Part shown: in pieces, positions 4,030-56,451 of the stretch
Layout: every line of letters begins with the position of its first letter
Position numbering within the stretch: the first letter of the stretch is position 1
Translations under genes and position numbers: made by a program
DNA from: Synchiropus picturatus
Lineage: Eukaryota
Length of the DNA: 64,000 bases
Assembly: GCA_044231675.1 (NCBI GenBank)
Contig: CM094669.1
Span: forward strand, 3,057,643 to 3,121,642
Direction: 5' to 3'
Notes under the pieces: generated by a model
Database searches by the model: none
What the model was told of the DNA's origin: nothing
What the model saw: the letters and a program-made list of their open reading frames with translations, nothing else

Positions 4030-4486
4030 GTACTTTCTTCTTCTTCCTTTTTATTTCAACTTACTCTTTTTTTGGACTTTTCTCTTCTGAACAGAACAAA
4101 AGTACTGCAGAGATACTGCTGTATTACTACAGAAGTAACTGGAGTACCAGCAGCAGTACTGTAGATACCTAAATAGTACTGCCGTAGCTTAGATTTATTA
4201 CTAGCTGACATACAGTAGCACTTCAGGTTGCCATGTATAACAGTGACACAGATGAGCCAATCAGACAGCTGCAGGTCACGTGCTGCAGACGCTCCTGTCT
4301 CTCAAGAGAGTTTCAGGCTTAAAACTTATAACCTTTTATTTGACGTGGTTGTGTCGCCCTCTGCTGCCTTATTTCTGTCACCGTCTTTTCTCACTTCTGT
4401 GTGGCTCCCTAATTTTACAGTTGTGTCGCCCTCTAATGTCGCGGTTTTGGCGCCCCCTAACGACTGTTTCGTTCACAGCCGCAGAC

Positions 4487-4603
4487 ATGGAGAGAACTTT
4501 CATCGCAGTGAAGCCCGACGGCGTGCAGCGCGGCCTCTGTGGCGAGATCATCAAGCGCTTCGAGCAGAGAGGCTTCCGACTGGTGGCCGCCAAGTTCATG
4601 CAG
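4487..4603 (+). CDS. nme2: nme2 exon encoding [39 protein letters not shown].
   Basis: Near-identical to human NME1/NME2 ([32 protein letters not shown]). Donor gtaacc at 4604. Confidence 0.9.
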
Positions 4604-4668
4604 GTAACCACGGCAACACGGTCAGTTGACCCGCGGGTTTCACTCAACCAGATGTGGTTCTGGTCCAG

Positions 4669-4770
4669 GCCTCTGAGGACCACATGAAGAACCACTACCT
4701 GGACCTGAAAGACATGCCTTTCTACGCCGGACTCTGCAAGTACATGTCTGCAGGGCCCATCCTCGCCATG
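4669..4770 (+). CDS. nme2: nme2 exon encoding [34 protein letters not shown].
   Basis: Matches NME2 [34 protein letters not shown]. Acceptor at 4666-4668 and donor gtgagg at 4771. Confidence 0.9.
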
Positions 4771-4839
4771 GTGAGGAAAGCTCCGGACCGCAGGTCGAGT
4801 CAGGTGACTCCAGGCTGACGGCTGTGTGTGATGTCACAG

Positions 4840-4952
4840 GTGTGGGAGGGGCAGAGCATCGTCAAGCTGGCCAGGATGATGCTGGGGGAGACGAACCCGG
4901 CCGACTCCAAACCTGGAAGCATCCGTGGTGACCTGTGCATCAACATCGGCAG
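4840..4952 (+). CDS. nme2: nme2 exon encoding [37 protein letters not shown](R), ending in phase 2.
   Basis: Matches NME2 [38 protein letters not shown]. Donor gtgagg at 4953. Confidence 0.9.
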
Positions 4953-5014
4953 GTGAGGCCGGGACGTGCCCCCTCACCCGGGAACCCGCCAACCCTCTGT
5001 CTGCTTCCCTGCAG

Positions 5015-5132
5015 GAACATCATCCACGGCAGCGACACCCTGGAGAACGCCAAGAGAGAGATCGACCTGTGGTTCAAGGCTGAGGAGTTTGTGTCCTACA
5101 CGTCCTGCGCCCAGGCCTGGCTCTACGAGTGA
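5015..5132 (+). CDS. nme2: nme2 terminal exon encoding [38 protein letters not shown].
   Basis: Matches NME2 [38 protein letters not shown]. Stop at 5130-5132. Confidence 0.9.
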
Positions 5133-5171
5133 GAGGCCCAACTGGACCCACCCGCCACATCTCTCCCTGAA

Positions 5172-7977: not shown

Positions 7978-7984
7978 TATAAAA
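7978..7984 (+). promoter_or_regulatory. TATA box (TATAAAA) of type I keratin gene A.
   Basis: gatataaaagagggtcgg lies ~80 bp upstream of the ATG at 8060. Confidence 0.6.
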
Positions 7985-8059
7985 GAGGGTCGGCGCTCAT
8001 CTCTTTCACTTCTCGTCTCCGAACCAGTCAGCCACTCGCCTCACCTGCAGAACACCATC

Positions 8060-8491
8060 ATGTCCAGGATGAGCTTCATGACCAGCAGCAGCAGTGCCGG
8101 CGGACGCCCCTTTGGTAGCAGGGCATCCATGACCGGAGGGGCTGGAGGCGGCCGTGTCATGATCTCAACAGCTTCTTCAGGTGGAGTCGGTGGGGGTGCC
8201 GGCGGCACTACCTTCTCCTACGGGTACAGCGGCTTCAGCAGCGGAGGTGGATTTGCCAGCAGTGGCGGGTTCGGCGCTGGCGGTGGAGAAGCGGATTTCT
8301 CCACCAACGAGAAGGTAGTCATGCAGAACCTGAATGACCGTCTGGCGTCGTACCTCGCTAAGGTGCGTAAGCTGGAGGCGGCCAACGCCGAGCTGGAGCT
8401 CAAGATTCGGAACTTCCTTGAAAGCAAAACTTCACCATCCAGCAGAGACTACAGCGCCTACTACGCTACCATCGCAGATCTGCAGGTCAAG
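8060..8491 (+). CDS. Type I keratin A exon 1: Gly/Ser-rich head plus coil 1A ([12 protein letters not shown]...[39 protein letters not shown]...DLQVK).
   Basis: Canonical type I intermediate-filament helix-initiation motif. Donor gtaagg at 8492. Confidence 0.85.
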
Positions 8492-8553
8492 GTAAGGAGG
8501 AGGGAGAGATCCGCTGCTGGTGGCGGTGGTGAAAAGCTTCTGGGTCTCTGCAG

Positions 8554-8636
8554 ATCCTCAAGGCCACCACAATCAACGGCGGCATCTACCTGTCCATCGA
8601 CAACGCGAAGCTGGCGGCAGACGACTTCCGAATCAA
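8554..8636 (+). CDS. Keratin A exon 2 ([28 protein letters not shown]).
   Basis: Acceptor cag at 8551-8553 and donor gtgagt at 8637. Conserved ...IDNA(R/K)LAADDFR(V/I)K keratin motif. Confidence 0.85.
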
Positions 8637-8707
8637 GTGAGTGAGCTTTTGTCATTGATCCCTCCCCAACAAAGACCCGGGTAGAGACACCAACTCACCG
8701 TCCGCAG

Positions 8708-8864
8708 GTACGAGAATGAGCTGGCCATGCGGCAGTCGGTGGAGGCAGACATCGCTGGACTCAGGAGAGTTCTGGATGAGCTCACCATGGCCAGAAGCGA
8801 CCTGGAGATGCAGATCGAGGGTCTGACGGAGGAGCTGGCCTTCCTTAAGAAGAACCACGAGGAG
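8708..8864 (+). CDS. Keratin A exon 3 ([52 protein letters not shown]).
   Basis: YE(N/T)ELAMRQSVE motif. Donor gtgagg at 8865. Confidence 0.85.
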
Positions 8865-8936
8865 GTGAGGCGGGGCCCGGCTGGAGGCCCGGCTGGAGAC
8901 CGGGGGCAATGCCTGACCAGTGTGTTTCTGCTGCAG

Positions 8937-9098
8937 GAAATGATGCAGATGCGGACTCAGATGTCCGGACAGGTCAGCGTTGAAGTGGATGCCCCACAAC
9001 AAGAAGATCTAACCAAAATCATGGAAGAGATGCGTGAATACTACAAGAACATTGCTGATAAGAACCGTCGGGAACTGGAGGCGTGGTTTAGCTCTAAA
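8937..9098 (+). CDS. Keratin A exon 4 ([54 protein letters not shown]).
   Basis: Acceptor cag at 8934-8936 and donor gtagga at 9099. Confidence 0.85.
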
Positions 9099-9171
9099 GT
9101 AGGACCCTCACTCCTCACTCGCTACACTGATGCCACATTCAACCAGCTCATGTGACCACCTTCTCCTACAG

Positions 9172-9297
9172 ACAGAAGAGCTGAACCAGGAGGTGGCAGT
9201 CAGTACGGAAACGTTGAGCACATCCAAGTCTGAAATCTCCACACTCAAACAGACGCTGCAGGGCCTGCAGATCGAGCTACAGTCTCAGCTAAGCATG
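9172..9297 (+). CDS. Keratin A exon 5 ([42 protein letters not shown]).
   Basis: Acceptor cag at 9169-9171. Weak donor gtgatg at 9298. Confidence 0.8.
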
Positions 9298-9368
9298 GTG
9301 ATGCCTCCTGCTGCTCCTCCTCCTGCTTGCTGCGCTTCGTCTCCTCTGACCTCCAGCTTCCTCCTCAG

Positions 9369-9592
9369 AAAGCCTCGCTGGAAACCACTCTGGCGGACAC
9401 GCAGAGCCGGTACACCATGATGATGCAGCGATTCCAGTCCCAGGTCACCATGCTGGAGGAGCAGATCTGCCAGCTGCAGGCAGACCTGAAGCGCCAGTCT
9501 CAGGAGTACCAAGACCTGCTGGACATCAAGACCCGCCTGGAGATGGAGATTTCCGAGTACCGCCGCCTGTTGGAGGGAGAAGCCGGAACTGG
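9369..9592 (+). CDS. Keratin A exon 6: coil 2B end ([15 protein letters not shown]...[29 protein letters not shown](G)).
   Basis: IF helix-termination motif (IKTRLEMEI(S/A)EYRRLLEGE). Donor gtgagt at 9593. Confidence 0.85.
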
Positions 9593-9669
9593 GTGAGTGG
9601 CGCTCCAGACAGGGCAGGATGTGCCATGACATGGCATCGACCAAACTCACATCTCCAACTCTCCCCCAG

Positions 9670-9937
9670 CATCTCCTCCTCCAGCAGCATGTCTATGTCC
9701 ATGTCCTCCAAATCGTTCTCGTCTGCCGGAGGCTCCTCGTCTGCTGGAGGCTCCTTGTCTGCCGGAGGCTCCTTGTCCGCCGGAGGCTCCTTGTCTACCG
9801 GAGGCTCCTTGTCTACCGGAGGCTCCTCCTCCACTACCACAAAAACCACCAGGCAGAAGGTGGTCACTGTCGAGGAAGTGATCGTCGATGGAAAGGTGGT
9901 CAGCTCCACCGCCACCGAGACCTTCAACACCAACTAA
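9670..9937 (+). CDS. Keratin A exon 7: Gly/Ser-rich tail ([29 protein letters not shown]...[25 protein letters not shown]).
   Basis: Acceptor cag at 9667-9669. ORF 9593..9937 is in frame. Stop at 9935-9937. Confidence 0.8.
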
Positions 9938-9957
9938 CACCTCACATGAGACCACCA

Positions 9958-9963
9958 AATAAA
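9958..9963 (+). terminator. AATAAA polyadenylation signal of keratin gene A.
   Basis: Hexamer 21 bp after the stop codon. Confidence 0.65.
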
Positions 9964-10429
9964 GTCTGCAGAGGTGCTTGAAAATAAAAGGTCATCTTGT
10001 GGTTTTATGATGTCAGAGGTCAAAGGTGCTTTGTTGGGGAATGTGCTTGACCTGCAAACACAAGTCTGATTTCACACAAGAGAACACACACACACACACA
10101 CAGATATACAAGGCCTCACACGAAAAACTGCATATTCACTTACACACTCCCAGAAGAATATACATAAAAAAAAGTATATTCCAGCATACAGCGAGAGAAA
10201 CTACTGTCAATAAGCATCAGGAACAGCTGGGATGAAACCATGACTTGTTCAGGTTTGGACCATGAACAAATACATGTTTCTTTGTTCCATGATGAGTGTT
10301 GGTACAAGCTAGGACCTGCTCTGGAATGATGGCGGGGTCGTGGGCTTCCGCTTAAAATTCCTGCGGCGTTCGTCCACTGGCTGTTCCTCAGGGTGGCCCC
10401 CTCCTCCCAGATACTTTCAGGAACGCTCC

Positions 10430-10436
10430 ATAAAAG
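10430..10436 (+). promoter_or_regulatory. TATA-like box (ccATAAAAGcc) of type I keratin gene B.
   Basis: Lies ~55 bp upstream of the ATG at 10488. Confidence 0.5.
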
Positions 10437-10487
10437 CCGGAGCACCCCCAGCCCGGCCACTCCAGCTCTGACTCCAGCGCCGCCGCC

Positions 10488-10850
10488 ATGACCTCCTTCA
10501 CTCGCTCATCCTTCTCCGGCCGCGTTGCTTCCATCAGGGCCCCCAGCGTGTACGGGGGAGCTGGGGGCTCCGGGGTCCGCATCTCCAGCACCAGCGTCCC
10601 GAGGACATTTTCCTCGGCGGGAGCCGGGTTCAACCTGATGGATGCGCTCGACGGGCCGGACAGCAACAAGAAGACCACCATGCAAAACTTGAACGACCGC
10701 CTGGCGTCGTACCTGGAGAAGGTGCGGCAGCTAGAGGCCGCCAACACTGACCTGGAGCTCAAGATCCGAACCTTTCTGGAGAGCAAGGCCACGCCCGAGG
10801 GTCAGGACCGCTCCGCGTACCATAGTGTGATCAGTGACCTGCAGAACCAG
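10488..10850 (+). CDS. Type I keratin B exon 1: K18-like head [34 protein letters not shown]...[36 protein letters not shown]...DLQNQ.
   Basis: The head resembles KRT18 (MSFTTRSTFS...SVYAGAGGSGSRIS). Donor gtgggt at 10851. Confidence 0.85.
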
Positions 10851-11007
10851 GTGGGTGATGCTCGGAGGCGTGATTTCATAACATGTGTATGTGTTTGATC
10901 TCAGAAAGTTGGTTCACATCAGCGGGCGTGGCCTGGGGGTCTCAGGTCCCTTATCTAATCTCTAATCTAACCAATCGCCATGACAATGTCATCTCTTTCT
11001 CTTAAAG

Positions 11008-11090
11008 ATCCAGGACGCCCGCTCTACCAACGGCTCCATTTACCTGGCCATCGACAACGCCAAGCTGGCGGCTGACGACTTCCGGCTCAA
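11008..11090 (+). CDS. Keratin B exon 2 ([28 protein letters not shown]).
   Basis: Acceptor aaag at 11004-11007 and donor gtgagt at 11091. Confidence 0.85.
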
Positions 11091-11185
11091 GTGAGTCCTG
11101 CGCATGCTGAAGGCGGGCGGAGCTCAGGCTCCTTCCTCTGTGATGGACCTGAACATGGTTTACATCTTGCTGCTCACACGACCAG

Positions 11186-11342
11186 GTACGAGAACGAGCT
11201 GGCTCTGCGTCAGTCGGTGGAGGGTGACAGCGCCGGGTTGAAGAGGGCTCTGGACGAGCTGACCCTTGGTCGCTCCGACCTGGAGATGCAGATCGAGTCA
11301 CTGCGCGAGGAGCTCATCCACCTGAAGAAAAACCATGAGGAG
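11186..11342 (+). CDS. Keratin B exon 3 ([52 protein letters not shown]).
   Basis: Same 157-nt length and phase as keratin A exon 3. Donor gtgagt at 11343. Confidence 0.85.
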
Positions 11343-11399
11343 GTGAGTCTTAACCTTGTTGCACGGGACTTGAAATGGGCTAACGTGATCCTCCTGCAG

Positions 11400-11561
11400 G
11401 ACCTGCTGGCTCTGCGGGACCAGATGGGGGGTCAGGTCAACGTGGAGGTGGACGCGGCGCCACAGCAAGACCTGTCTGCCATCATGGCTGAGATCAGAGC
11501 ACAGTACGAGAATGTTGCCGCGAAAAACCGCAAAGATCTGGAGAACTGGTTCCAGGCGAAG
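11400..11561 (+). CDS. Keratin B exon 4 ([54 protein letters not shown]).
   Basis: 162 nt, as in gene A. Donor gtgggt at 11562. Confidence 0.85.
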
Positions 11562-11620
11562 GTGGGTGTGAGCGTCCAGAACTATAGTAGACTGAGAAGC
11601 TAACACATGTGCTCCTGCAG

Positions 11621-11746
11621 ACCGAGGGTCTTAACAAGGAGACGGCTGAGTTCTCAGAGTCGCTGCAGTCGTGCCGCTCCGAGGTGACGGAGGTCAAGCG
11701 CACCCTGCAGGGTCTGGAGATCGAGCTGCAGGCCCAGCTCAGCATG
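11621..11746 (+). CDS. Keratin B exon 5 ([42 protein letters not shown]).
   Basis: 126 nt, as in gene A. Donor gtaggt at 11747. Confidence 0.85.
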
Positions 11747-11807
11747 GTAGGTTCCCGCTCACGTGCACAAGTCCAACATGTCCTCACCACACCCGCACCG
11801 TGCCCAG

Positions 11808-12028
11808 AAATCCTCCCTGGAGGGGACTCTGGCCGACACGCAGAGCCGCTACGCTTGCATGCTGGCCGGCTACCAGAGAGAGGTGAGCGCTCTGGAGGAG
11901 CAGTTGGCCCTGATGAGAGCAGACATGGAGCGGCAGGGGCACGAGTACCAGGCGCTGCTGGACATCAAGACCCGGCTGGAGATGGAGATCGCAGAATACC
12001 GCCGCCTGCTGGATGGAGAGCTCTCACT
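11808..12028 (+). CDS. Keratin B exon 6 ([73 protein letters not shown](L)).
   Basis: Helix-termination motif present. Donor gtgagt at 12029. Confidence 0.85.
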
Positions 12029-12087
12029 GTGAGTGTTGGCCTGTTTGTCTCGGCACACCTGTGACACTGACCCGCTCGCCCCCCCAG

Positions 12088-12166
12088 GCCGTCCACAGTC
12101 GAGTCCACCTCCAAGTCAAAGGTTCTGATCATCACCCGGGAAAGCGACGACGAGTCCGAGTCCTGA
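12088..12166 (+). CDS. Keratin B exon 7: short tail (PSTVESTSKSKVLIITRESDDESES*).
   Basis: Acceptor cag at 12085-12087. Stop TGA at 12164-12166. AATAAA at 12192-12197. Confidence 0.7.
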
Positions 12167-12349
12167 GACCAAGACCAAAGCCTGTAACTGAAATAAAGAA
12201 AGATTCATGCACCTTTGTGTTTGTCCTGCTCATTGACTGCTTCTGTGTGTGGACCAGTTCGTGACTTTATAGTATAAAACCAGGTAGAAATGAGAAGAAC
12301 GTTAACCGGGCCGTGTTATTGTGTTATTTGCTTACTTTACTTAAATACT

Positions 12350-12422
12350 TTTCATTTTCTTTTCAGTGTCTTTTAATTCCTTTTGGAATTAAAAGGGTCT
12401 TTTAATTCCTTTTGGAATTAAA
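12350..12422. repeat. Direct duplication of a 33-bp unit (tcttttaattccttttggaattaaaag). Each copy contains an inverted repeat (ttaattcc/ggaattaa) that could form a hairpin.
   Basis: Seen directly. It lies ~160 bp downstream of the keratin B poly(A) signal. Confidence 0.8.
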
Positions 12423-12839
12423 AGACACTGTGGGGGGCCACAAGTGGCCACACTCCGCCCACCTCTGCTCTAAATGAATACGTGAATTCATGAGAGGAGA
12501 AACGGTGTAGTGAGTCAAACTCACGTCACGTCTTCAGAGCTCCTGTGCACTGACTGCGCCGCCCTGTGGAAGACGAGAGTCACTTCAGCTGCAGTTGAAC
12601 CGTCATCTTCAGTATCACACTTCATGATGGACTTGAGCCTGGAACAGGCAGGTGTTCGACAGGTGAATGAGGTGAAACACGTGGCACACTTTCTGCTTCT
12701 GTCTCACCCCGTGAAGTGATGAACGAACCCAAGAAAATGAAGGTTTGAACTCTCACTCAGTACTGGAATGAAATGTTTCCAGATTCCACAGACACGTGAT
12801 ACAGCGCTCCTCTGGATGACAGCTGAGCTGAAGATCGGT

Positions 12840-13762
12840 TCGGACCCATCAACCGGGACAACAGCGCTTTCTTCGCTACCATCAGTGACGTCACAGCCAA
12901 GGTAAAAACCTTAATGCCGATTCTCACAGACACGCTCTTGACGTCACTGTGGTTGCGGCTCCAACTGGGTCTCCGGGTGACGTCATCGCGCTCTCTGACT
13001 GCAGGAGATGGTCACCATGCGCCCGCAGATGAGCGGGCAGGACCACGTGGAGGTGGACGCGGCTCCGATCCAGAACCTGAAGAAGGTCATCGCGAATGTC
13101 CGACACCACTACGAGGGCATCGCGGCGAAGAACCAGCGAGACCTGGACTCCTGGTTCAACACCAAGGTACCGCTGTGACGTCATGCACGCGGTCCCTCCC
13201 CCGCCTCGTTAATGTGCGCGTGCGTGTTTGCACAGACCGAAGCTCTGAACGCGGAGGTCGTCACCCAGACGTAAACTCTGCAGACGTCGAGGTCAGAGGT
13301 CACCGAGGTCAAAAGGACGTTGCAGTTGCTGGAGACTGAAGGGGAGACTGAAGAGACTCAGGGTCGGTACTCCATGACGCTGGGCGGGTACCAGGCGCAG
13401 GTGAGTCAGCAGACCCGCTTCGGTGACGCATGACGCACCGAGTTCGACTGGCCCTTCTCTCCTCCCCACCAGGTGTCGTCTCTGGAGGAGCAGCTGTTGC
13501 AGCTGTGGCCTGATCTGGAGTGCCAGGGTCAGGAGTACCAGACGCTGCTGGACATCAAGACCCGACTGGAGCTGGAGATCGCAGAATATCGCTGCCTGCT
13601 GGACGGAGAGTTTGTCAGATGACGACCCCAGGACGACGTTCAAGTGCGCATAATGCCTGCTCTTGCAGCTCTTCTACCACGGCCACCACCAGGCGAGTGG
13701 TGACGGTGGTGGAGAAGGTGGTTGATGGGGTCGTGACGTCCAAAAGCTCCTCATCCCATTAA
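12840..13762 (+). pseudogene. Truncated type I keratin pseudogene. It keeps an exon-1 3' fragment (DNSAFFATISDVTAK) plus homologues of exons 4-7. Exons 2-3 and the head are missing, and an in-frame TAA sits inside the exon-5 homologue ([13 protein letters not shown]).
   Basis: The exon 4-6 segments are readily alignable to keratins A and B ([25 protein letters not shown]..., [25 protein letters not shown]). The exon-5 homologue keeps the [14 protein letters not shown] core but is heavily diverged and carries the TAA at 13273-13275. There is no head or coil-1A exon. Confidence 0.75.
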
Positions 13763-15311: not shown

Positions 15312-16466
15312 TCAGCTGCTGTCGCTGCCCGCCGTTCCCACGTCACTGGATGGCGTGCAGCCCCCCGACATGCTGGAGTCACTGACTGGCGTGCTGCTGG
15401 TGCTGGCCGTGTTCCCTTGCTCCCGCTTGTGGATCTGCTCGTGTGCTTTGAGGTGACCCGACTGGCTGAAAGTCTTGCCGCACTGCGGGCAAGCGTACGG
15501 TCGCTCACCGGTGTGGATCTGTTGGTGGGCCTTCAGGTGCCCGAGACGACCGAAGCTCTTGCCGCACTGAGTGCAGCCGAAAGGTCTCTCGCCCGAGTGG
15601 ATCTTCTCATGGGTTTTAAGAACTCCAGAGTTGCTGAAAGTCTTGCCGCACTGGGAGCAGGTGAAGGGCTTCTCGCCCGTGTGGATCTGCACGTGATTCC
15701 GGTAGCTGGTCTCCTTGGTGAAGCTCTTGCCGCAGTGCTGGCAGCAGTACGGCCGCTCACCCGTGTGGCTCAGCTGGTGGGCCTTCAGCTCTTTGGACTG
15801 GCCGAAGCTCTTCCCACAGGTGCCGCAAATGAAGGGCCGCTCGCCCGTGTGCAGGCGCTGGTGCGAGCGCAGGTCGTCCGCCTTGGTGAAACCTTTGGGG
15901 CAGTGCGCGCACACGTAGGGCTTCTGGCCAGTGTGGATGAGCTGGTGGCGCTTGAGGTTGCCGGCCTGGCCAAAGCTCTTGCCGCACTGCGAGCAGGAGT
16001 ACGGCCGCTCGCCGGTGTGGATGCGCTGGTGGGTCTTCAGGTTTCCCAGAGTGCTGAAGTTCTTGCCACACTGTGTGCAGGAGAAGGGCTTCTCCCCCTG
16101 CATGTTGCGAGGTTTCCTGGCTGTTGGGTTCTGGGATTTAGTGGTGAGAGGAAGGCTGGCTGCCCCGCGCCCGCCCCCCCCGGAGGCCGCCTTGCCCTGC
16201 TGGGCCGGCTGCAGCTCATACAGAGACCCTCCTCCAAACTCAGGGTCGCCTTTCCCCAGCCCATCCACCAGCAGCGAGTCGGGCCGAAGCTTGTTCAGTT
16301 CCGTCCGGAGTTCGGCCATGTGGATGGACTCCAGGCCGTTGTGGTGCAGGCCCGACAGAGGGCTGGGTTCCGGGAACTCTGACTTGAGCACCGTGAGGTC
16401 CGTGGTGTAGTAACACTGCAGGTCCACGTGGTGGTCCGACTTGATGTACTCGAGTGTGTCAGTGAC
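15312..16466 (-). CDS. C2H2 zinc-finger protein, terminal coding exon: [20 protein letters not shown]... followed by 8 tandem C2H2 fingers, then stop.
   Basis: ORF 15312..16427 (the ORF track labels a GTG start as M). Eight C-x2-C-x12-H-x3-H units joined by TGE(R/K)P linkers. Acceptor tttcag lies just upstream at 16467-16472 on the minus strand. Confidence 0.85.
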
Positions 16467-25299: not shown

Positions 25300-26450
25300 C
25301 ACACACACACTTTCCAGCCAGGACTGGTTGTGGATCTGGCTGTTGGTCTTGTCTTAGGTTCTACTGCTGGTCCGCTTCTGCTGGAACTCACAGGTCCCGC
25401 TCTCTTGCTCTGCCCCCCACACTTTGCACTTCCTCACTCACTTCCTCCCTGACTTTCTTACTTCTTTCCTCAGTTCATCACAGATTTCCTCACTCCTCTC
25501 CTTCCCTCACCCCCGTCTGCACTTCTCACTCACCTACCATATAGCTTCCTAACTCGCATCCTGGATTCACATCTTGCTTCCTCTTCCTCTCTCCTTCCTC
25601 CTCCACATCATCCCTCACTTCCTCCATCACATCCTTCCTTCCTCCTTCCGTTCCTCCCTCACTTCCTTTCTTTACTTCATGCCTGACTTTCTCTCCTTTC
25701 CTCCGTCATTTCCATTCTCACATCTTCCCTCCCTTCCTCCCTTGCTTCCTCCTTCACACTTTCTCGAATTTCCATTCTCACATTTTCCTTCCCTTCCTCT
25801 CTCCCTTACTTTCTTATATCCTAATCCATCCTCCCTCATTTCCATTGTTCTCCCTCTCATCTTCCTTCCTCTTCCTCACTCCTCTCCTTCCCTCACCCCC
25901 GTCTGCACTTCTCACTCACCTACCATATAGCTTCCTAACTCGCATCCTGGATTCACATCTTGCTTCCTCTTCCTCTCTCCTTCCTCCTTCATATCATCCC
26001 TCACTTCCTCCGTTATGTCCTTCCTTCCTCCTTTCCTTCCTCCCTCACTTCCTTTCTTTACTTCATGCCCCACTTTCTCTCCTTTTCTCCCTCATTTCCA
26101 TTCTCATATCTTCCCTTAATACCTCCCTCACATCCTCCTTCCCTTCCTCCCTCACTTCCTTCCTCCTTCCCTCCCTCTCTCACTGCTTTCCTTGCTTCAC
26201 GTCTCACGTCATCACTCCCTTCCTAACTGAGATGGCATCGTAACAAAGCCACTGTGACACGACCCAACTCATTCTCTACTTCCTGTTGTCTCCTGACTCT
26301 CTGTCATCCTCCTCTTCACTTTCGTCTCAGGCCTCACCGCCCGACTCTTTTTGTGTTCCTATCATATCATAGCGCCTCATACTTCTCTGTGGTCCCTCCC
26401 TCCCTGACTCCTCTTCATCTCATCAGCTCATCGGTTCACATGATCTTCCT
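25300..26450. repeat. CT-rich low-complexity block in stx1b intron 1 with a ~385-bp unit tandemly duplicated (copies start near 25490 and 25875, with a third partial copy).
   Basis: Long identical strings recur, e.g. cactcctctccttccctcacccccgtctgcacttctcactcacctaccatatagcttcctaactcgcatcctggattcacatcttgc at ~25490 and ~25870. Confidence 0.85.
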
Positions 26451-27539: not shown

Positions 27540-27880
27540 TGCCTCTCCAGTCCCCCAGTCACACTCTAGTCTTGCTATAGTCTCCTAGTACCTCTCCCAA
27601 GTCTCTTAGTGTCTCCCCCTAGTCTCCTGGTGTCTCCCTCTAGTCTCTTAGTGTCTCCCCCTAGTCTCTTATTGTCTCCCTCTGGTCTCCTAGTGTTTCT
27701 ACCTAGTCTCCTCGTGTCTCTCCCTAGTCTCCTGGTGTCTCACTCTAGTCTCCTAGTGTTTCTACCTAGTCTCTTATTGTCTCCCTCTAGTCTCCTAGTG
27801 CCTCTCCCATGTCTGTTAGTGTCTCCCCCCTAGTCTCCTGGTATCTTCTTCTAGTCTCCTAGTGCCTCCAAGTGCGTCTC
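27540..27880. repeat. Minisatellite with a ~20-21-bp unit (ctagtctcctagtgtctccc) in about 15 copies, in stx1b intron 5.
   Basis: Seen directly. It is contiguous and has no spacers, so it is not CRISPR-like. Confidence 0.9.
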
Positions 27881-34671: not shown

Positions 34672-35539
34672 TCATACAAAAGGTCCGCCTGACATGCTAA
34701 GAAAGGTAGGTCCAGCCATGCTGAGTGCTGGGGGCCTGGCGGAGCCGCTCCAGTGCACCTTCATGTGGTGACGCAGGTTGGACCGCGAGGAGAAGCGCTT
34801 GTCGCACTGCGGGCAGGTGAAGGGCTTCTCTTTGGTATGGATGCGGCGATGGCAGATCAGCTGCGTGGAGACCCGGAAGGACTTCCCACATTCTGGACAC
34901 TGGTAGCGTTTCGGCTCTGTATGGATGCGACGGTGGTTCTTCAGGGACATCAGGTTGGGGAACTCCTTCTGACAGGTGCTGCAGAAGAACGTGCCGGTCT
35001 TGTGGCTGTTCTTGTGGTTGAGCAGGGAGCTGGCGTGGCGGTAGGTCCGGCCGCACTGGTCGCACACGTGGGACTTCACCACTGCCTCGCGCCCTCCTTT
35101 GACCAAATCTCCAGGCTGGAGTCCCTGCTCCTGCATCAAAGTGAGGTCCAAGCCTGAGCCCCAGCCCAGCTCGTGGGAGCTCCCTGACCGGGCCTGCAGG
35201 GCTCTGGGCTGCGGGGCCTCGCCGTGGCTGATTTCCATGTGAAGTCTGAAGCTCGCTTGTGTGGGAAACGAGCGCTGGCAGGAGCGGCACGTCAGCTCCC
35301 GCTGCTTCTGGTGCACCCGCCGATGGTTGTACAGCTGTGATGCCACACGGAAGGCCTTCCCGCAGTCGTGGCACCTGTGGCGCCGCGTCTCTGAGTGAAT
35401 CCGACGGTGGTTCTTGAGGGCGAGCAGGTTGGAGTAGGTCTTGAGGCACACGGCGCAGTGGTAGATGCCGACAGTGTGTGTGTTCTTGTGGTTGAGAAGG
35501 GAGCTGGCGTGGCGATAGGAGCGACCGCACTGGTCACAC
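34672..35539 (-). CDS. znf646: ZNF646-like gene, terminal coding exon: 6 C2H2 fingers of the C-x2-CGR(S/T)YRHASSLLNHK type. The RYT|CDQC finger is split by the intron.
   Basis: ORF 34672..35595. Acceptor ctctgcacag lies on the minus strand, and phase 2 matches the GTGAGT donor at 36095. Confidence 0.65.
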
Positions 35540-36095
35540 CTGTGCAGAGGCGACAGCAAGAGGGAAGCAACGTTAACACCTGAGGAGCAGACCACACCGG
35601 GATCAGATTCCGCTCGGTATCAGGACTTTTCATCTGGTACAGGTATATGATCTTGAATCCGGCTCAAGTTGAAGACATTTAAAACCAGCAGGGGGCGCAT
35701 CTCCTACTGACTGACACTGCACCCACCAGTCACATCCTCAACTGAGTTCAAGAGAGTTGAGGGTGTTATCCAGGTGTGCAGCGCAGCAGGTGACGGGTAC
35801 TGAACCCCCCCTGACCTGGACAAACAAGGGAGGAACAACAAACATGACACATCCTGTGCGTGCGTGCGTGTGTGTGAGTGTAATGCGGGCGGACGGGAAG
35901 CAAACAGGGAGGACTTATCTGATCTCGCCACTAATTCAATTTGTCCAAACTTCAGAAAAATCCGAATTCCGGCACGCGTATGGTCCCAAGGAAGCCGGAT
36001 TGGAGATCATATACCTGGAATAGACATGAGACTAAATTGATCTCCTCCAGTTTGACATTGTCCAAAAGAAGAAAAAAAAAAGGGAGTGGACTCAC

Positions 36096-37202
36096 GTGTA
36101 CCGACACTCATCGCCCTCTACTGGACCAGCTGGAGTTTTTCTCCTCACCTCCATGCCCACCTGATTCTCCCCACAGCGGTGGCGGGCCAAGCCAGACCTG
36201 CCCTGGAAGCTCTTCCCACAGGTGGGGCAGCCGAAGGGTGTGGCACCCTCTTCGTGCACCTTCTGGTGATTTCGTAGGAATCGGGCGAGGCGGAAGGCTT
36301 TGCCGCAGGTGTGGCATATGTGCTTCTTACGCTGCGTGTGGATGCGCATGTGGTTGCGCAGCGCCATGTAGTTGGTGTACGGTTTATCGCAGAAGTTACA
36401 GCGGAAGTTTCCAGTCTTGTGTGTGTGTTTGTGGTTCAAGAGCGAGCTAGCATGTTTGTAGGCACAGCTGCAGAGATCGCAGGCGTAGGGACGCTCATCT
36501 GAGTCCAGGTCCACTGAGCTCCGCTCCATGTTAATGGTGGTGGAGCTGCTGGTGGTTGAGGACGACGGCAGATGCTGTGCAGGGCAGTCATGACTGGCCA
36601 GTTCATCTGCTGTCGCAAAGCCTTCACAGCAACCGTCGCACTCGAAGTCCATCTGGGCCCCGGGACCCTGAGGCCCCTTGCAGAGGCCAGCTGTGGTGTG
36701 AGTGGCAAGCTGGCGCTGCGTGCGGAAGCCCTTCCCGCACTCTTGGCAGTTGTGCTTCTTTTGGGCAAAGTGCAGCCGCAGGTGGTTCTTCATGGCCAGC
36801 CGGTTGGGGTAGGTGGAGTTGCACACATTGCAGTGGTACTCACCTATTTTGTGCAGGTTCTTATGGTTGGCCAGGCTGCCAGCATGACGGTACGTCTTGC
36901 CACATTCCTCACAGGCGAAGGGTCGCCGGCCGGATTCCGCCGGGTCAAACTTCTGCGGTCTGGATGTGCCAGCAGAAGAGTAGGGTTTCTTGAACCCTTG
37001 CTGGTACTTGACGCCCATCATTGGACCCTTTGAGGACTCTCCCCTCATGGTTTGCATTTGCGACGGGCCGGGCTGCTGGAAGCGTGCGCCATTAGCGCCG
37101 GTCCGGACAAGACCTTTGGCACGGTGTTCCTCATGCAGCCGCAGATGGTTGATCAGTTGTTTCTGGATCTTGAAGGCTTTTCCACATTCTTCACATTTGT
37201 GC
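36096..37202 (-). CDS. znf646: ZNF646-like gene, middle coding exon (…HKCEECGKAFKIQKQLINHLRLHEE…CEECGKTYRHAGSLANHKNLH… multiple fingers).
   Basis: ORF 36092..37057 plus an in-frame upstream extension. Acceptor tttttctgcag is at 37203-37213 on the minus strand. The ORF's apparent stop codon is part of the GTGAGT donor. Confidence 0.65.
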
Positions 37203-37898
37203 CTGCAGAAAAACCCAAGCAGGTCAGTCCGGATGACCGGGCTATGTGGGCAGCCTGGCCAGGGAAAAACTGTGCTGAATTATGACAGAACGTAGCAGCT
37301 AGCTACCACCATCGTACACCAAGACTGAAGTCATACAAAAACAAGACCCCCCCCCCCCCCCCCCGAGATACCTGGTGACATTTACCCATTTGTCTCATCA
37401 CAAAATTATGGAGCACTTCCACTTCCACTCAGTCCAGCAGAGAAGTCCAGAATCTCAACACTGGACAGTCAATTGAGGTTTCCACCACGGACAAATATCT
37501 AAAAAGAAACTATCATCTGACGAAGAGTTAAGCGAAAATATATTTCTCACACTATGAATGGATTACTGCAAAACTGTTCACATGTCTAACAGCAACAAAT
37601 CAGTAACATGACTAAGGCAAGGACTTGAACGAGAAACCACATCACGGCCTCAACTGATTGCAGAACTGACTCTACAGTCATTTAAGATGCTCTTTGTGCT
37701 CAATTGTAAAACACATTCTCTTCATTCTCATCAGTCATCTCAGCACCTGGTACTTTGCTAGTTATTACATAATATCTTTTCCCAGTGACAGAACGTAAGG
37801 AGAATCTTTTTTTGGCTATTACGGCCCAGACCTGAGAAAATACCAGTTAAAAAAAGCAACACATGAAACCAGAAGGGATACGAATAGGAGAGGCTCAC

Positions 37899-40405
37899 CG
37901 TTTCAGGTCAAAGTGGGTCCTCTGGTGATTCTTGAGGGCCAGAAGGTTGTAGTAACGCTTCTGACATACAAGGCAGCGGAACACACCAGTCTTGTGGGAC
38001 TTCTTGTGGTTGAGGAGGGAGCAGGGGTGTCGATAGCCTCGGCCACACTGGTCACACTTGTGTGGTTTGTCACTCTGGTCCGCCATTTGCCTCCGCGAAT
38101 CTCCACTTAGATCACGGCTTCCTCCACCAATGCCCCCAATGACACCGTCTCCGGCGGACATGCCTTTGGAGCCATTCAGGTTCTGTTTGCCCACCGATTC
38201 CGCTCGGTTCTTGCCAGGACACAAGTGAGTGACCAGGTGGTGACGGTCAGCAAAGAACATCCCGCAGTCCACGCAGATGTGGCTCCGCCCATCCACCTTT
38301 TCACTGCCGTTCGTCGAGGCACCGCCGATGCTCTGCTGGCCATCCTGTCTCTGTGGTCCATGGACCAACTGGTGATTCAGAAGGTCTTGTTTCCTGGAGA
38401 AGCTCTGTCCGCATGTCGAGCAGATGATCCGCCACTCCTGTCCCTGGTTGGAGGGTCCTGGTGCGGTGGGGTTATTGGCATGACTGCGCAGATGGCTACG
38501 GAGCGCTCGAAGGCTGGCATAGTGGTTGCCACAAACAGAGCACTGGTAAACCTCCCCATCATCCTCTTCCTTGTCGTTGCTGCTGCCCATCCTCTTGGCT
38601 CCACTCTGAGAAAACTGCCGCTGGCTGGTGCCCTCTTTCAGACTGCTGGAATTGCTTGCCGGAAGAGGGGAAGGGCCAGAGCCGTGGTAGTTCATGTTTC
38701 CTATGAATCCGTTGGACATGTTTCCCTGCTGTTGCCCCCGGCGAGGGCACAAGTGGGACTTTATCCCAGACACGTCAGAGTACATCTCACCACAGTCGGC
38801 ACACATGTGTCGGTCAGCCTGCCGATGAGCCGAATTGCTCTGGGAAAGCGAACTGCCGTCGAAACGATCATGGAACTCAAGGGAATCCAACCCACTGCTG
38901 TGGCCTCCATCTTGACTAAAGTGAGAGTCGCCCATATTTCCCTGCAGAGAGATGGGTGTCGCAGCACCGTTGCCTTCTTGCACATAGTTCTGCTGGGAGT
39001 CCATAGTCAAAGGTTCTGGTGAGAGCCAATCATTACTCTCATTCATTGAGGAGTTGCCGTGGCGTCCCTTGTGGCTACGAAGATGGCTGTGCAGTGCGGC
39101 AAGGTGTGGGTACTGCTTGCAGCAAATGGTGCACTGGAAGTGGCCTGTCTGGTGGCAGCGTTTGTGGTTCACCAGGCTGCCGGCGTGCCTGTAACTTTTG
39201 CCACATTCTCCACACTTAAAGCGCCTCTCCCCGTCGTCTGGAGAGTTGGTTTGCTGTACACGCCCACCAGAGGGGGACGACACAGAACCCTGGGAACCAG
39301 TGCTGAGTGAGTCCGAGTTAAGGATTGAATTTTCTTGGCTATGAGCCGCAGGATGAGGGTCATGAGTCAGGTAGTGGACCTTCAAGCTCTCGAGATCCGG
39401 GTGCCCAGCCCCACAATACGCACACGTGTAGATGGGGTTGTTGACAGCTGGGCCCATGATTGGATCATATGGACCTCGCTTGTCACTGGACAATGGCGGG
39501 AGAGGCAGGGGGTCACCCAGAGTTGGGGTGTAGGTGGGAGATCGAACAGTGCTTAGATTATGAGGCATGATGCCAGGGAAGCTGCGAGGAAGCCCCAGAG
39601 AAGGCGATGCAGAGTTGTGAAGGAGGATGTGGTCCTGGAATTCCGCCTTGCTGGGCAGTGCAATTTGGCAGAGGTGGCAGAAACATGAGGTGGCGTCGTT
39701 TGCTGGAGCCGACTGTGTGCTGCTGCCACCACTGCTCACCATGGAGGCTCCAGGCGCCTTGTACTTTGAGTGGGTTCTCTCGTGGCTGTTGAGTGACGCC
39801 AGGTTGCTGAACTGTTTTGAACAGACAGAACACTTAAAAGTCCCTTGCTGGTGACACTTCTTGTGATTTACCAGGCTACCGTGGTGGCGGTAGGTTCGGT
39901 CACACAGGTCACACTTAAAAGGTCTGTCCCACGCGTCGTCTGATCCTTGGGAGTTTTTCTTTGAGGTGTCAACCGACTGGTGGTCTTGTAAGACGCTGTT
40001 ATTCAAATGAGGGCGTCCGAACCCCTCAGCATGGTCCTGCGTGAGACTGTAGTCCCTCTCGTCGGTGGCGCCCTCTTCTGGTACTTCCTCAGTCTCCTCC
40101 TCTGGGTGGGCACTACTGGGGGACAGAGTATGGATACGTAGGTGGTTCTTCAGAGCGACTGCATTTGGAAGTGTGCGGGTACAAACTGGACACTGGAATG
40201 AACCCACCTCGTGAGATTTCTTGTGATTGGCAAGGCTGGCTGCGTGCTTGTAGATCCGCCCACACTGTTCGCACTCGAATCTTCCGCTGTCTTCCTGCTG
40301 GTAGTGTGCTTTCATGTGCTCTAGTAGACTTGGAGTACTTGGACAGACCATATCACACTGTTTACAGGGGACTCCCTTCGCTCGACTCATATCATGCATT
40401 GCCAT
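37899..40405 (-). CDS. znf646: ZNF646-like gene, large first coding exon (MAMHDMSRAKGVPCKQCDMVC... about 835 aa, many paired fingers with CxxCGRxYRH(A/P)(G/A/C)SL(A/V/L)NHK(K/R)xH).
   Basis: ORF 37895..40438 (the tool starts at GTG; the first ATG is at 40405). The exon ends at donor CG|gtgagc at 37898. The finger signature is characteristic of ZNF646, and the human orthologue neighbours STX1B and FBXL19 on 16p11.2. Confidence 0.65.
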
Positions 40406-43299
40406 AGTACTCGGGCTGAGACTTGGGCTGGGAATCACAGTTCACAAGGACTGAGAGGTGAGGTGTCATGGGGGTGCCTTGGTTGTTTTCTACTGAAGAA
40501 CCGCCCGTCAAATTAAGGCCCACCATGAGAAGGTGAAAGATGGGCCACACCAGCCGAGGAGGATGTACTGCGGACAGAGAAAGAGAAGAAACTTGACCAA
40601 CGTGCTTGGCGTGCCGAGTGTCACAAACACATCTGAGCTTTTCATCGCCAGACATGAGAGCAGCAGAAGTTTTTCAGAGTTTTTATTTTATTAAAAAAAG
40701 CTGTCATTCCATTTCTCATGTTGATGGAAACATCAACGCAGTAACTTCTGAGTCTGGTTCTCTAAAGCTTTCTGCCACTGGCTGAAGTTGCAGAAATTGA
40801 GCTGGAAACTTGTTCCATTGTTAAAATTAATAAGCAACAACTATGTAAATATAATCCATACAGTAAAACATACAAGTCAGCGAGGGGGACGTAGCTCAGG
40901 AACAGCCAGTCTGTTTCACTGCATCAAGCATTTGTTACTGGTTGGATCAACCAGGTAACCTCATTATTGAAAAAAAGCAAGAGATCTACTGGCTCTGTTT
41001 AACTCATGCAAAGTTTACAAAAGAGTGTCAAGAAAGTGTTTAAACAAGATTGGTCTTTAATGGGTTTCATTCATAAACCAATTCATGGCACTACTGTGCT
41101 GCCTCCATCTCTGATTAAAGAATAAAACATCTCATTATTTGCATCATTTCATTATGGTCCTAAGATTCATATCCCGGCATATTTTAGATGAACGGAGACT
41201 TCTGACAGAAAACAATACAATATTTTAACTACAAAAACGCCTCACAACCTGTTGCCTTTCCTGAAGGTAAAAGGAGCAGCCGATGCTTCATCGCTAATAA
41301 CCAGAGCAGCAGCACAATCAGTGATCATGGAAACATAAACTGTGTCTGCGTCAAACAGGTGATGCATTGAAATGATTGAAAAAAAATCTAAGTAATAAAT
41401 GTTGATCTACATATGGAAGGGGTGCACATCCGAACCATGCGTGTACAACGTTGCAAACAGATGTTAGGTTTAGAGCATTATTTTGATACAGCCTGGGTGG
41501 CCGGAGGTTTTGAGGCTGCAAAACTGTTGGGTTTGTTTTTCTTCAGAATGAGCTCCCTGCCCTGTGGTCCATTGAGTCGGCCATGTTTTTGAATTGTGTC
41601 GACGCGTCATACAAGCTAGCACATACATGTAAGGAGCGAAGCTAGCAAGCACACGTGAATCTGAAAACTGTCCACATTGCCCGGGCTTCATCTCCAAGTC
41701 TCAATACCGGTAATACTGGCAATACCAGCACATCGCCCGGCTCGAGTCAGGTCAATAATTCATACAGCAACAGAAGCCACTCCGAATAAAATATTGACAC
41801 CTCAGAGAAATGTGATGCGGATTGAAGCCCTTTGAAAGGTGCGAGTGTCCCACTGCATTCCAGTCAGAACCAGCAGGATCCCTAACTTCAGAACCACGCT
41901 ACAGATCCCTGAGCTATAGTCCATGATACCGGACCACTTGTCAGGACAAGTGATGGCGCCAAGTTAACTGATATGGAACAAGTCCCTGCTTATTAAAAAA
42001 ACCCACATGGCAGTTCAAAGATCAAAGCCAACTTCAGCAGAACACAATTGACCCACGCCATTGATCAGAAATGAACCATGACGTGTCGCCGACTTCAACT
42101 GGCCAACCACAGACAAGCAATGGATAACCGTGCTCCCTAATATCGCCCAACAACATCATGCACATTCTATATAAGAAAGGGCCGAGGAGACTGTTCCTCC
42201 TCAAGAGACTAAGGTCTGAGTGTCTGTGGTGTGCAGCAGCATCACTAACACTGGGAGACGGGGGATGATAGCAAAGCTCTCATTCATGACTTGAACACCA
42301 CGGAGCAGCTCATTCTGTTGCAGATCATTACACCCATGACACCGCAGGTCTTTCCTTCCTGCTTCAATCAGACTTGACACTCAGCTGTTCAGTGAAGCAC
42401 CTGGAGTCTTCAGAGTGTTTCGACACAGTGTTGTGTGTTAAACAATAGTCGACAAATGTCAATATCTTTTGTCACTTTTCACTGCGCTTTGGAGCATGGT
42501 TTGCAGGGGAGAGTCAACTTTTTCATTTTTCATTTTGCCCTTATTTGGTTTAGTCACAAAAATCAGCTTTGAGTTTTGTCCCTCAGTTGCTTGCCTTTAA
42601 TCCGTTATGCTGTAATGTTGACATTCGTCCGAGTACCGGCTGACAGTAGGAAGACCAATCTTTAAAGGAATAAATATTTGAAGATGTTTACATGTCTGTT
42701 GAATTCAAATATTTGTGTGACGCTTCTGATTATTCCAAGTCAGCCGCGGCTAGACCCGAGCACGGTCATCGGGGCCGGGCTCCTGACCTTGGCCCGTCTC
42801 CCCTCAGGGGGATCCACCGGGACAAAGCTGCATCTTCCAGCACCGATGTGTCCCCCGTCACACCTGAGCGCAGTGACACTCCAGCCCGGCAGCAGCAGAG
42901 CGACCAAGCCTCGGCAATAAAACTCCAGCAGAGCCTCACGGGGGGACCGGACGGGTGTCGGTGGACCGGGTGACCACCAGACACTTTCACTCGCCGTCGG
43001 AAAATGGCCATTTTCCGCTAACTAGCCTCGCGTTCACCCCCAAACACTCGCCCTGCTGAACGCACACATCACAAAATGTTCCGGGGCTTTGAACCAGAGC
43101 TGTAAACCTGCATCACAACACTATAGCGTTTTCATTCATGCATTATTGGTCTTGTGTTTGAGAAAACGGGGAGCTAATGCTAACGTTAGCGGTTAGCACC
43201 ACCCCCCGCGATGACAGAAAAGGGGGTAGCCCGAGTAAAAAAAACACGAAAACAAACAACAGAGCGCAAGACGTTTATTCCTTGTTTTCCACAGTAACG

Positions 43300-54230: not shown

Positions 54231-54357
54231 TCAAGGGCATGGTGGGGCGTTGAGGCACGGTTGTGACTCAATTTCTTGACCGTTAGGAGGATCCCCACAG
54301 TCCGCGTTTGGTATCCCGCTGAATGTTGCTTTCAAATTTTGAATTCCTATGGTGGGA
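54231..54357 (-). CDS. cfp: cfp terminal exon (SPTIGIQNLKATFSGIPNADCGDPPNGQEIESQPCLNAPPCP*).
   Basis: Resembles the human properdin C-terminus ...NVTFWGRPLPRCEEL...KRPCLHVPAC. Stop at 54233-54231. Confidence 0.7.
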
Positions 54358-56451
54358 CTGGACACACACACACACAGAGTTAACAGAGTACTGACTGATG
54401 AATGACTGACAGATGTCACTGACCTATACTCAGAGTAGTCAGGGGAACATATCATCTGTCTCTTTCGAGTGGACTTCGGGCCACAGGTGGGTCTACACGA
54501 GGTCCAGGACCCCCAGCCCTCCCAGTTCCCCTTCACTGAAAAATCACACACCATATCAGCTTGTGTCTGTTTGTGTGAAATGACTCTCCACCACTCACAA
54601 TCACAACCGGTGACATCGTAGCACACTTGACTCTGGACCATGTCCTCTCCTTTACAAGCCAAACCACCATGACTCCGGTGCAAACATTTCCGGGTCTGCC
54701 ACTGCAGGCCACCAGTGGTGGAGCATGTGATGTCCTGGTCTTCGTCATGTGCATACGTACACGGACCCCAGGATGACCACGCTGACCACTGCCCATCCAC
54801 TAGAGGGAGACATGTCAGTCGCAAAATCTGTCTCGGTGTATGGAGGGGTGTCTACCTGGACAGGGGACTTTGGTATTGCAGGTTCTGCTGCGGCTGGCAT
54901 CACCAGGACACTGTCGTCCTCCGTGTTTGGGGGAGGGGTTTTTACATTTCCTGGATGACAGCTGAATCCCTAACCCACATGTAACTGGACAAGGCGTAAA
55001 GGAGGACCAGGACCCCCACGCCCCGTCCACTGATGAAACAGAGAGATGAGTACTGGGGGGGCTGTGGACACAGACATCAGGATGGGAGGAAGAGTACCTG
55101 AGCAGGGAGGCACATTAAGGCAAGGCTGCACTTCTGTGGGGTCACCATGGCAACTCCTACCAGGTGGGTGGGTGGAGGGGGCGGGGTTAGAGCAGAAGCG
55201 GTGGCGTCTCCTGGCCACAGCACCCCCTTGTGGGACGCAGGAGGCGGAGCACTCGCCCCAATTTGACCATCCAGACCAAAAGCCATCCACTGAAACCAAC
55301 ACACATTTTTACCGTCCCGTTTGTTTGTGCGCATGTGAGTGTGTTACCTGGACATTTGTTCTTGCAGACACTGGTTTTGGTAGTTGGACCTTCACAGACT
55401 TTCCCACCGTATTTCGGGGCAGGGCTATCACACTGTCGGATTGATAGCTGTAGTCCTTCCTCGCAGGTGGTTGAGCAGGGTCCAGGTGGAGACCACGCAC
55501 CCCAGTTGCCGTCCACTGAAGTGAAGGTTGTTGAGTTTCCATCTTCAGGATCAGAGCCATGTACAGCGACTCACCAGGACAGTTGTTGATCTCGGTGCAG
55601 AGCTGGACCTGCTCCGATTCTCCTTGACAGTCCTGTCCGGGGGGCACCGTGTGAGGGGATGGAGCGGGGTCAGAGCAGGAACGATGACGTCGTCTGACTG
55701 GGATCATGCTGTCAGTGATACAAGTGCCAGAACACTGAGACCAACTGGCCCATTCGGACCAGCTGCCATGGACTGTGAGAGAGACAGTGGTCAGACGGGA
55801 CACAGGCAAGCTGCAGCTTCCAGGCACACAGCTCACCTGGACAGGCCTTGTTTTGCTGACAAGGCTCCCTCTCATCTGATGGACCACTGCAGAGCGAGTG
55901 ACAGTGGGGAGGACCAGTACAAACCCTCGCTCTCCTCCTGACTCCCTGTACTCCACAGCTAACTGAACATGGTGACCAGGGGTTCCACGAGCCCCACCCC
56001 TTTGCTGCACACACACAAGTGTTTGAGGAGCTCGATTGAAGGGTGATGTGTGTAGGCTGTACCATCACAGCAGGTTCCCGTACACGGTTCCATCTGCAGC
56101 TTGATGTTTGGGCCATCACACTGGCCGACACCGAAACATGTCCGTGTCCTCTGCCTTACTCCGTCCCCGCACTGGACGCTACATGGCGACCAAGGAGTCC
56201 AGGAAGTCCACATGGGATAGCTGAGACACACCCACAGTCACAGACTATCATTGTGTGTTTTCGTGTGTGTGAATATATATACTGTTTTTACGGACCCACA
56301 GGACTGACACTCTTCCAGGGCTGAAAGCTGGAAGCCATTGTTGATGTTCAAACAACAGTCATCTTTGTCCACCTCACCCAGCCTGGCATCACACTGACCT
56401 GAGGTTCTGTTGACACTGGAGAAACAGAGCACGCTCACTTCAAACACACAC

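Follow-up and report, generated by a model that had tools for sequence, protein, structure and literature searches.

The closest described relatives of the genes considered here are the teleost epidermal ('E') type I keratins (13-like, enveloping layer, krt1-19e and sseKer2), represented by many percomorph proteins at 66-79% identity, with which they have in common the intermediate-filament (IF) rod, the exon pattern (83/157/162/126/221 nucleotides, nt), the head motif and the helix-termination motif. Pseudogenes occur in vertebrate keratin clusters (human type I KRT; krt222 in gar, shark and coelacanth), where they retain their introns, stand in place among functional paralogues and are disabled by deletions, nonsense mutations and splice-site mutations, and lineage-specific keratin loss has been documented in the literature. 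We have analyzed a 64,000-nt stretch of contig CM094669.1 of the dragonet Synchiropus picturatus, here called the window, in which three type I keratin genes, A, B and C, lie head to tail on the forward strand between position 7978, the first base of a TATAAAAG box in front of A, and position 13762, the last base of the stop codon of C. The third gene is a wrecked copy. C is very probably an unprocessed pseudogene, what neutral decay has left of a conserved keratin gene whose intact form persists in Neosynchiropus ocellatus and in a pipefish; it resembles the keratin pseudogenes of other vertebrates in all the respects just listed, but differs from them in that its loss can be dated between two dragonet genera and its ancestral lesions can be told apart from its private ones.

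The gene models of A, B and C were built by hand from the sequence and compared with the genomes of N. ocellatus, Synchiropus splendidus and the pipefish; a C-like gene, with the extra intron described below, was also found in a mudskipper. The parts of C that survive in the window are the following (in junctions, here and below, the slash marks the breakpoint or splice point):

12825-13762, forward strand: the C remnant overall, a truncated copy
12825-12901, forward strand: 3' remnant of exon 1, the end of coil 1A and linker L1 (ELKI..GPINRDNSAFFATISDVTAK), aligned to N. ocellatus L002 12688-12698 and 12718-12783
12959-12975, forward strand: the first 17 nt of exon 2, with the acceptor changed to GG, followed by the junction of a 316-bp deletion
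13005-13166, forward strand: exon 4 homologue, 162 nt, frame open, AG and GT sites retained
13236-13400, forward strand: exon 5 and the first part of exon 6 joined into 165 nt instead of 126 + 75, as aligned to N. ocellatus and S. splendidus
13272-13274, forward strand: in-frame TAA, GAG in N. ocellatus and TAA also in S. splendidus
13401-13472, forward strand: an extra GT-AG intron of 72 nt, dividing the canonical 221-nt exon 6 into 75 + 146
13473-13618, forward strand: exon 7 (146 nt, the second part of the canonical exon 6), with LRADL changed to LWPDL, one R changed to C, and EYRRLL changed to EYRCLL
13619-13620, forward strand: splice donor changed from GT to AT, as in S. splendidus
13645-13668, forward strand: the stretch that forms the 5' extension of the terminal exon in an X3-type model of S. 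splendidus, with acceptor CAAG/ at 13643-13644
13669-13762, forward strand: tail exon, 94 nt, SSTTATTRRVVTVVEKVVDGVVTSKSSSSH, stop at 13760-13762, frame open; annotated in S. splendidus as an alternative last exon of B

Two deletions account for the missing 5' part of C. One, of about 460 bp, removed the promoter region, the 5' untranslated region, the ATG, the head and most of coil 1A, leaving about 77 nt of exon 1; the other, of 316 bp, removed exon 2 from nt 18 onward, intron 2, exon 3 and part of intron 3. The preliminary description, drawn up from the letters of the window only, had C losing its head exon and exons 2-3 while keeping a 3' fragment of exon 1, which is largely right except that 17 nt of exon 2 survive; the TAA that it placed in the exon 5 homologue is indeed there. 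Both deletion junctions (GATGACAGCTGA/GCTGAAGATC and CTCCGGG/TGACGTCATCGCG) are identical in S. splendidus, which has four lesions in common with the window: these two deletions, the TAA and the GT to AT donor. An assembly artefact is ruled out for the common lesions, the junctions being the same in two independent assemblies. Other lesions are private. The window alone has a 97-nt deletion with its junction at about 13340-13352, which cost 36 coding nt and intron 5, a frame-shifting 19-nt deletion between 12835 and 12836 in the exon 1 remnant, and the R to C change in EYRRLL, whereas C of S. splendidus retains exon 5 (126 nt), intron 5 and exon 6a (75 nt) and has instead an exon 4 donor changed from GT to AT, an intron 5 donor changed from GT to GC, and a replaced exon 1 remnant. 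All three exon 7 changes (R to W in LRADL>LWPDL, R to C, and R to C in EYRRLL) are specific to the window; S. splendidus and N. ocellatus keep R. The termination motif of C thus reads EYRCLLDGE, and its initiation motif is deleted. The 'radical substitutions' that the preliminary description saw in the termination motif reduce to a single new one, R to C, a CpG transition (CGC>TGC): the adjoining LELEIAEY is also present in intact orthologues and is an ancestral trait of the C lineage. C still has introns 4, 6 (the extra one) and 7, and it keeps its position between B and a zinc-finger gene, the same as in N. ocellatus. A possible cryptic donor (GA/GTTTGT at 13609/13610) would keep the frame past the lost one, and is irrelevant given the other lesions. 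Against the Pfam Filament profile (PF00038), A and B match over positions 1-310 of 313 (E=8e-104 and 6e-103), that is, a complete IF rod, while the C remnant matches only over positions 141-310 (E=2e-37) and is not a complete member.

What C was before these lesions can be read in its relatives. In N. ocellatus the genes follow one another as they do in the window (RasGEF, NDK, A, B, C, then a zinc-finger gene on the minus strand), the two loci being collinear with 80-89% nt identity, and the C orthologue is intact: 392 amino acids starting MRSSRSV, with canonical splice sites and exons of 83/157/162/126/75/146/94 nt after exon 1. In the pipefish, a keratin of 417 amino acids adjoins the same minus-strand zinc-finger neighbour and is the positional orthologue of C. 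The locus of S. splendidus matches the window at 95-97% nt identity over 23 kb and holds a dead C. Because the lesions are common to the window and S. splendidus while C is intact in N. ocellatus, the inactivation falls in a common ancestor of the first two, after the split from Neosynchiropus and before their own. The presence of intact positional orthologues in N. ocellatus and the pipefish also indicates that C is an old, established gene that was lost. That C might instead be a young tandem duplicate of A or B that failed and was never functional is a reading to which its tandem position, the shared exon phases and the resemblance of its tail to that of A lend some colour, yet we regard it as very improbable: the rod of C shares no more than 54-57% identity with those of A and B (65-67% for its intact orthologue), against 84-94% for orthologue pairs, the orthologues stand intact at the same position in two other genomes, and C carries an intron that A and B do not have. 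The claim that the array captures birth and death within a keratin cluster therefore holds for the death of C and not for a birth, the three paralogues being 65-70% identical in the rod and C having intact orthologues elsewhere. The intact C protein of N. ocellatus is unusually divergent in places (LVRLGMDNAQLAANDF at L002 12841-12923, exon 2, where other keratins have AVHLSIDNARLAADDF). In the rod it is 76% identical to each of its pipefish and mudskipper counterparts, which are 82% identical to each other, and this suggests that dragonets were already under weaker constraint at C by the time Synchiropus lost the gene. In the 10 kb of pipefish sequence examined around the C orthologue, no orthologue of A or B was seen; a distant (33-40% identity), apparently intron-less IF-like fragment, from head to coil 1B, lies 6 kb 5' of it (L003 3181-3774).

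The substitutions in C agree with the loss of function. In a comparison with S. splendidus (Nei-Gojobori counts, NG86), the ratio of nonsynonymous to synonymous rates (dN/dS) is 1.32 for the C remnant (24 nonsynonymous and 6 synonymous changes) and 0.115 for B (7.5 and 19.5); C differs from B in this respect (Fisher p=6e-5), and its synonymous fraction is consistent with the neutral expectation (p=0.67). For A the ratio is 0.42 (24 and 17), clearly above that of B. On the window branch, changes in C fall 8:7:7 over the three codon positions, and of the 11 changes that hit positions unvarying among the other seven keratins, 9 lie on that branch. Changes on the stem of C, polarised with the pipefish, come to 8 synonymous and 9 nonsynonymous, intermediate, as expected. 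With the pipefish or the mudskipper as outgroup, C has 38 changes on the window side against 17 on the N. ocellatus side, a moderate signal that alone is not decisive because A and B, too, have more changes on the window side; it is the comparison with S. splendidus that decides the matter. The decay of the third copy, already proposed from the window alone, is thus borne out by both the lesions and the neutral pattern. Several points weigh against it all the same. Measured against N. ocellatus, dN/dS of C is only 0.43-0.46, compared with about 0.2 for A and B, most of that branch being older than the inactivation; the substitution counts are small (30 changes in C); a single frame, broken by nothing but the TAA, still runs through exons 4-8; the 97-nt deletion specific to the window is seen in one assembly only; and transcription of the remnant in S. 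picturatus is possible. Moreover, the tail exon of C is intact and annotated as part of B in S. splendidus, so that a part of C may live on in a transcript sense.

Could C nevertheless be a functional, divergent gene, with an unrecognised first exon upstream and the exon with the TAA skipped? The frame kept across exons 4-8 apart from the TAA, and an exon 1 remnant donor and exon 4 acceptor that are both intact and phase-compatible, would allow for such a gene, but an in-frame ATG is missing upstream, a frameshift disrupts the exon 1 remnant, AT stands at the last donor, C has lost its initiation motif together with coils 1A and 1B, its substitutions follow a neutral pattern, and S. splendidus has two further donor mutations; we give this explanation hardly any credence. 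The history of the pseudogene can be sketched as follows. When intact, the C gene had eight exons, with the extra intron specific to its lineage among its introns. In the common ancestor of S. picturatus and S. splendidus, one deletion took the promoter, start codon, head and coil 1A, and a second took exons 2-3, this being the order that we infer; a nonsense mutation and a splice-donor mutation were gained in the same ancestor. C then drifted neutrally, each species adding lesions of its own. With the start codon, the helix-initiation motif and coil 1B all missing, what is left cannot make a keratin and could not pair with a type II keratin into filaments, and presumably C yields no product at all.

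The intron at 13401-13472 is, by contrast with the lesions, not damage but a genuine intron of the C keratin lineage. It is found in the intact C-type orthologues of N. ocellatus (L002 13712-13777), the pipefish (L003 11503-11574) and the mudskipper (L004 12854-13568), which rules out a damaging 72-nt insert or a very recent intron gain by duplication, and it is absent from A, from B, from an Astyanax K13-like relative and from the B-like gene of Seriola. It was probably gained in, and would be characteristic of, one percomorph keratin subfamily. Its flanks (CAG/GTGAGT ... CAG/GTGTCG) hint at an origin by a small duplication, and no account of an 'additional intron' in type I keratins of fish turned up in a literature search. 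The preliminary description gave all three copies common exons 3-5 of 157, 162 and 126 nt; this is so for A and B, but only the 162-nt exon is common to all three. It also overlooked the extra intron, the 97-nt deletion across exon 5, intron 5 and exon 6, the GT to AT donor, and the splicing of B into the C tail exon annotated in S. splendidus.

The tail exon of C deserves separate consideration. Chimeric or read-through transcripts that adopt pseudogene exons are a known phenomenon, and the transcripts predicted by the S. splendidus models would be of this kind, joining exons 1-6 of B to the last exon of its dead neighbour. NCBI lists three isoforms of the S. splendidus gene B: X1 is the normal protein of 396 amino acids, X2 (XP_053707592.1, 398 amino acids) leaves B exon 6 at a GC donor (GA/GCTCTC) for the C tail exon, and X3 (XP_053707593.1, 409 amino acids) keeps the ordinary exon 6 donor and joins it to an acceptor that lies 24 nt 5' of the C tail exon. 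The same may happen in S. picturatus, with C dead as a gene and its tail exon captured as an alternative last exon of B, reached from B exon 6 at 13645 or 13669; we consider this possible, if somewhat doubtful. Such splicing would skip the last exon and poly(A) site of B and replace its short acidic tail with the canonical RRVVTVVEKVVDG tail. X2 and X3 have exactly this structure, the NCBI pipeline as a rule issues alternative isoforms only with supporting alignments, the window retains both donors, both acceptors and an open frame, giving products of 398 and 409 amino acids (one ending ...LLDGDSSTTATTRRVVTVVEKVVDGVVTSKSSSSH), and the tail of B itself has lost the VVDG motif kept in the B-like keratin of Seriola. 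On the other hand, X2 depends on a weak GC donor, the acceptor of X3 is not present in N. ocellatus, no transcript contig with the X2 or X3 products is on record, and the junctions could be low-level read-through noise; moreover, the 3 nonsynonymous changes and 1 synonymous change in the tail exon between the two species give no sign of constraint. We treat exon capture as a rather doubtful possibility and not as a finding. That B adopted the exon after the death of C as a regulated alternative last exon, restoring a canonical RVVTVVEKVVDG tail, seems to us unlikely. The N. ocellatus annotation has a related problem: one model (P0005, L002 10001-14086) of 787 amino acids fuses the B orthologue (the first 395) with the C orthologue (the last 392) by skipping the B stop codon. 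Together with the S. splendidus models that attach the C tail exon to B, this B + C fusion is a warning on the annotation of this locus.

A and B are intact and under purifying selection, and the three-copy tandem type I array described at first sight was recovered by tblastn, by Pfam and in the rebuilt models. Searches with A and B find exactly three keratin-like loci in the 64 kb, all of type I, and the names of the database matches are likewise all type I; against PDB, B matches type I K14 and K10 (E=8e-40 and 4e-35) far better than type II K5 and K1 (E=1e-15 and 1e-10). Both genes follow the type I exon pattern (83/157/162/126/224 in A, 83/157/162/126/221 in B), with all seven exons separated by GT-AG introns, and both have the helix-initiation motif LNDRLASYL and the helix-termination motif EYRRLL[ED]GE. 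An Rfam scan of the whole window gave no match. The features of A, B and the interval between B and C are as follows:

7978-7985, forward strand: TATAAAAG box upstream of A, read from the sequence, 75 nt 5' of the ATG
8060-9937, forward strand: keratin A coding region, 483 amino acids, Gly/Ser-rich head and tail, canonical splice sites, Pfam match; seven exons at 8060-8491, 8554-8636, 8708-8864, 8937-9098, 9172-9297, 9369-9592 and 9670-9937
9721-9827, forward strand: 18-nt tandem repeat (Tandem Repeats Finder), 5.9 copies, coding SAGGSL repeats in the A tail
10488-12166, forward strand: keratin B coding region, 396 amino acids, short acidic tail, hand model with Pfam match; seven exons at 10488-10850, 11008-11090, 11186-11342, 11400-11561, 11621-11746, 11808-12028 and 12088-12166
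12350-12516, no strand: an insertion of 167 nt, by comparison with S. splendidus, in the interval from B to the C remnant, with no other copy in the window

The TATAAAAG box could be a promoter element of A. Compared with the epidermal keratins of other teleosts, A is set apart by a Gly/Ser tail of unusual length that contains a hexapeptide repeat, whose copy number varies between the window, S. splendidus and N. ocellatus; the orthologues are 483, 469 and 471 (P0011) amino acids long, respectively, and the N. ocellatus protein is the best full-length match to A. The P0011 model begins with a spurious N-terminal extension of 126 amino acids, a translated promoter region.

B, which has its poly(A) signal (AATAAA) at 12192 and is 98% identical to S. 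splendidus XP_053707591.1, differs from the same keratins in its short acidic tail, which lacks VVDG. The heads of A and B do differ, that of A being Gly/Ser-rich as first described, but the label 'KRT18-like' given to that of B does not stand. KRT18 is likewise a seven-exon type I keratin with a head that is not Gly-rich; in the literature, however, teleost K18 has been reported to adjoin K8 and to form a separate clade. Because the best matches to B are 'keratin, type I cytoskeletal 13-like', 'type I cytokeratin, enveloping layer', 50 kDa, keratin 92 and sole sseKer2, with the K18 name absent from the best 120, and no type II keratin gene (K8) was found next to B, the three keratin-like loci of the window all being type I, B is a teleost 'K13-like' epidermal-type keratin and not a KRT18 orthologue. 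The Solea senegalensis sseKer2 gene has been reported to be expressed in skin and gill and to fall within the E clade. The insertion at 12350-12516 holds a perfect palindromic repeat of 29 nt x2 (12368-12424) and is possibly a small foldback element.

Upstream of the array lies a RasGEF-domain (rapgefl1-like) gene, whose RasGEF match in the window is below threshold because only its last exons are included; a RasGEF-domain gene is present in both dragonet relatives. In its last coding part, a 96-nt, TGA-rich tandem repeat (645-911) encodes an extended stretch rich in Asp and Glu, immediately ahead of where the RasGEF domain ends at its C-terminal side. A small NDK/nme-like gene at about 4480-5160 stands between it and keratin A, in the same place as in both relatives, so that the keratins, described at first as lying next to the rapgefl1-like gene, do have it upstream but are only loosely linked to it. 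Likening this arrangement to the human 17q21 type I locus fails as a matter of synteny: the tetrapod type I cluster has been reported to be flanked by smarce1 and eif1, not rapgefl1, with no such synteny in teleosts. In the window, the flanks are instead RasGEF and NDK genes on one side and zinc-finger genes on the other. In the mudskipper, the C-like keratin adjoins a Btz-domain (CASC3-like) gene (L004 16674-24019). CASC3 is the immediate neighbour of RAPGEFL1 on human 17q21, and these fish keratins thus lie in a 17q21-related linkage group; at best, the comparison holds as loose linkage.

Further along the window, C2H2 zinc-finger open reading frames lie on the minus strand at 15312-16427, 34672-35595, 36092-37057 and 37895-40438, one of them coding 847 amino acids in a single frame. 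Thrombospondin type-1 repeat (TSP1) open reading frames, also on the minus strand, are found at 54231-56016; in Seriola, the B-like keratin is followed by a TSP1/properdin-like gene (L007). The strong negative GC and AT skew at 24-28 kb is explained by CT-rich tandem repeats at 25969-26192 (periods 12/28) and 27551-27869 (periods 21/63).

The loss of C is of an ordinary kind, gain and loss in keratin arrays being well known, but it is a cleanly resolved and datable loss of a conserved teleost epidermal keratin. The extra intron, which splits a very conserved 221-nt IF exon, is a useful marker for the C keratin subfamily. If the splicing from B to C were real and regulated, it would be a small, neat case of exon salvage from a pseudogene, and the adoption of the C tail exon, if true, would be a clean and datable example of a structural protein that acquired a new C-terminus when it took over an exon of a dying tandem paralogue.

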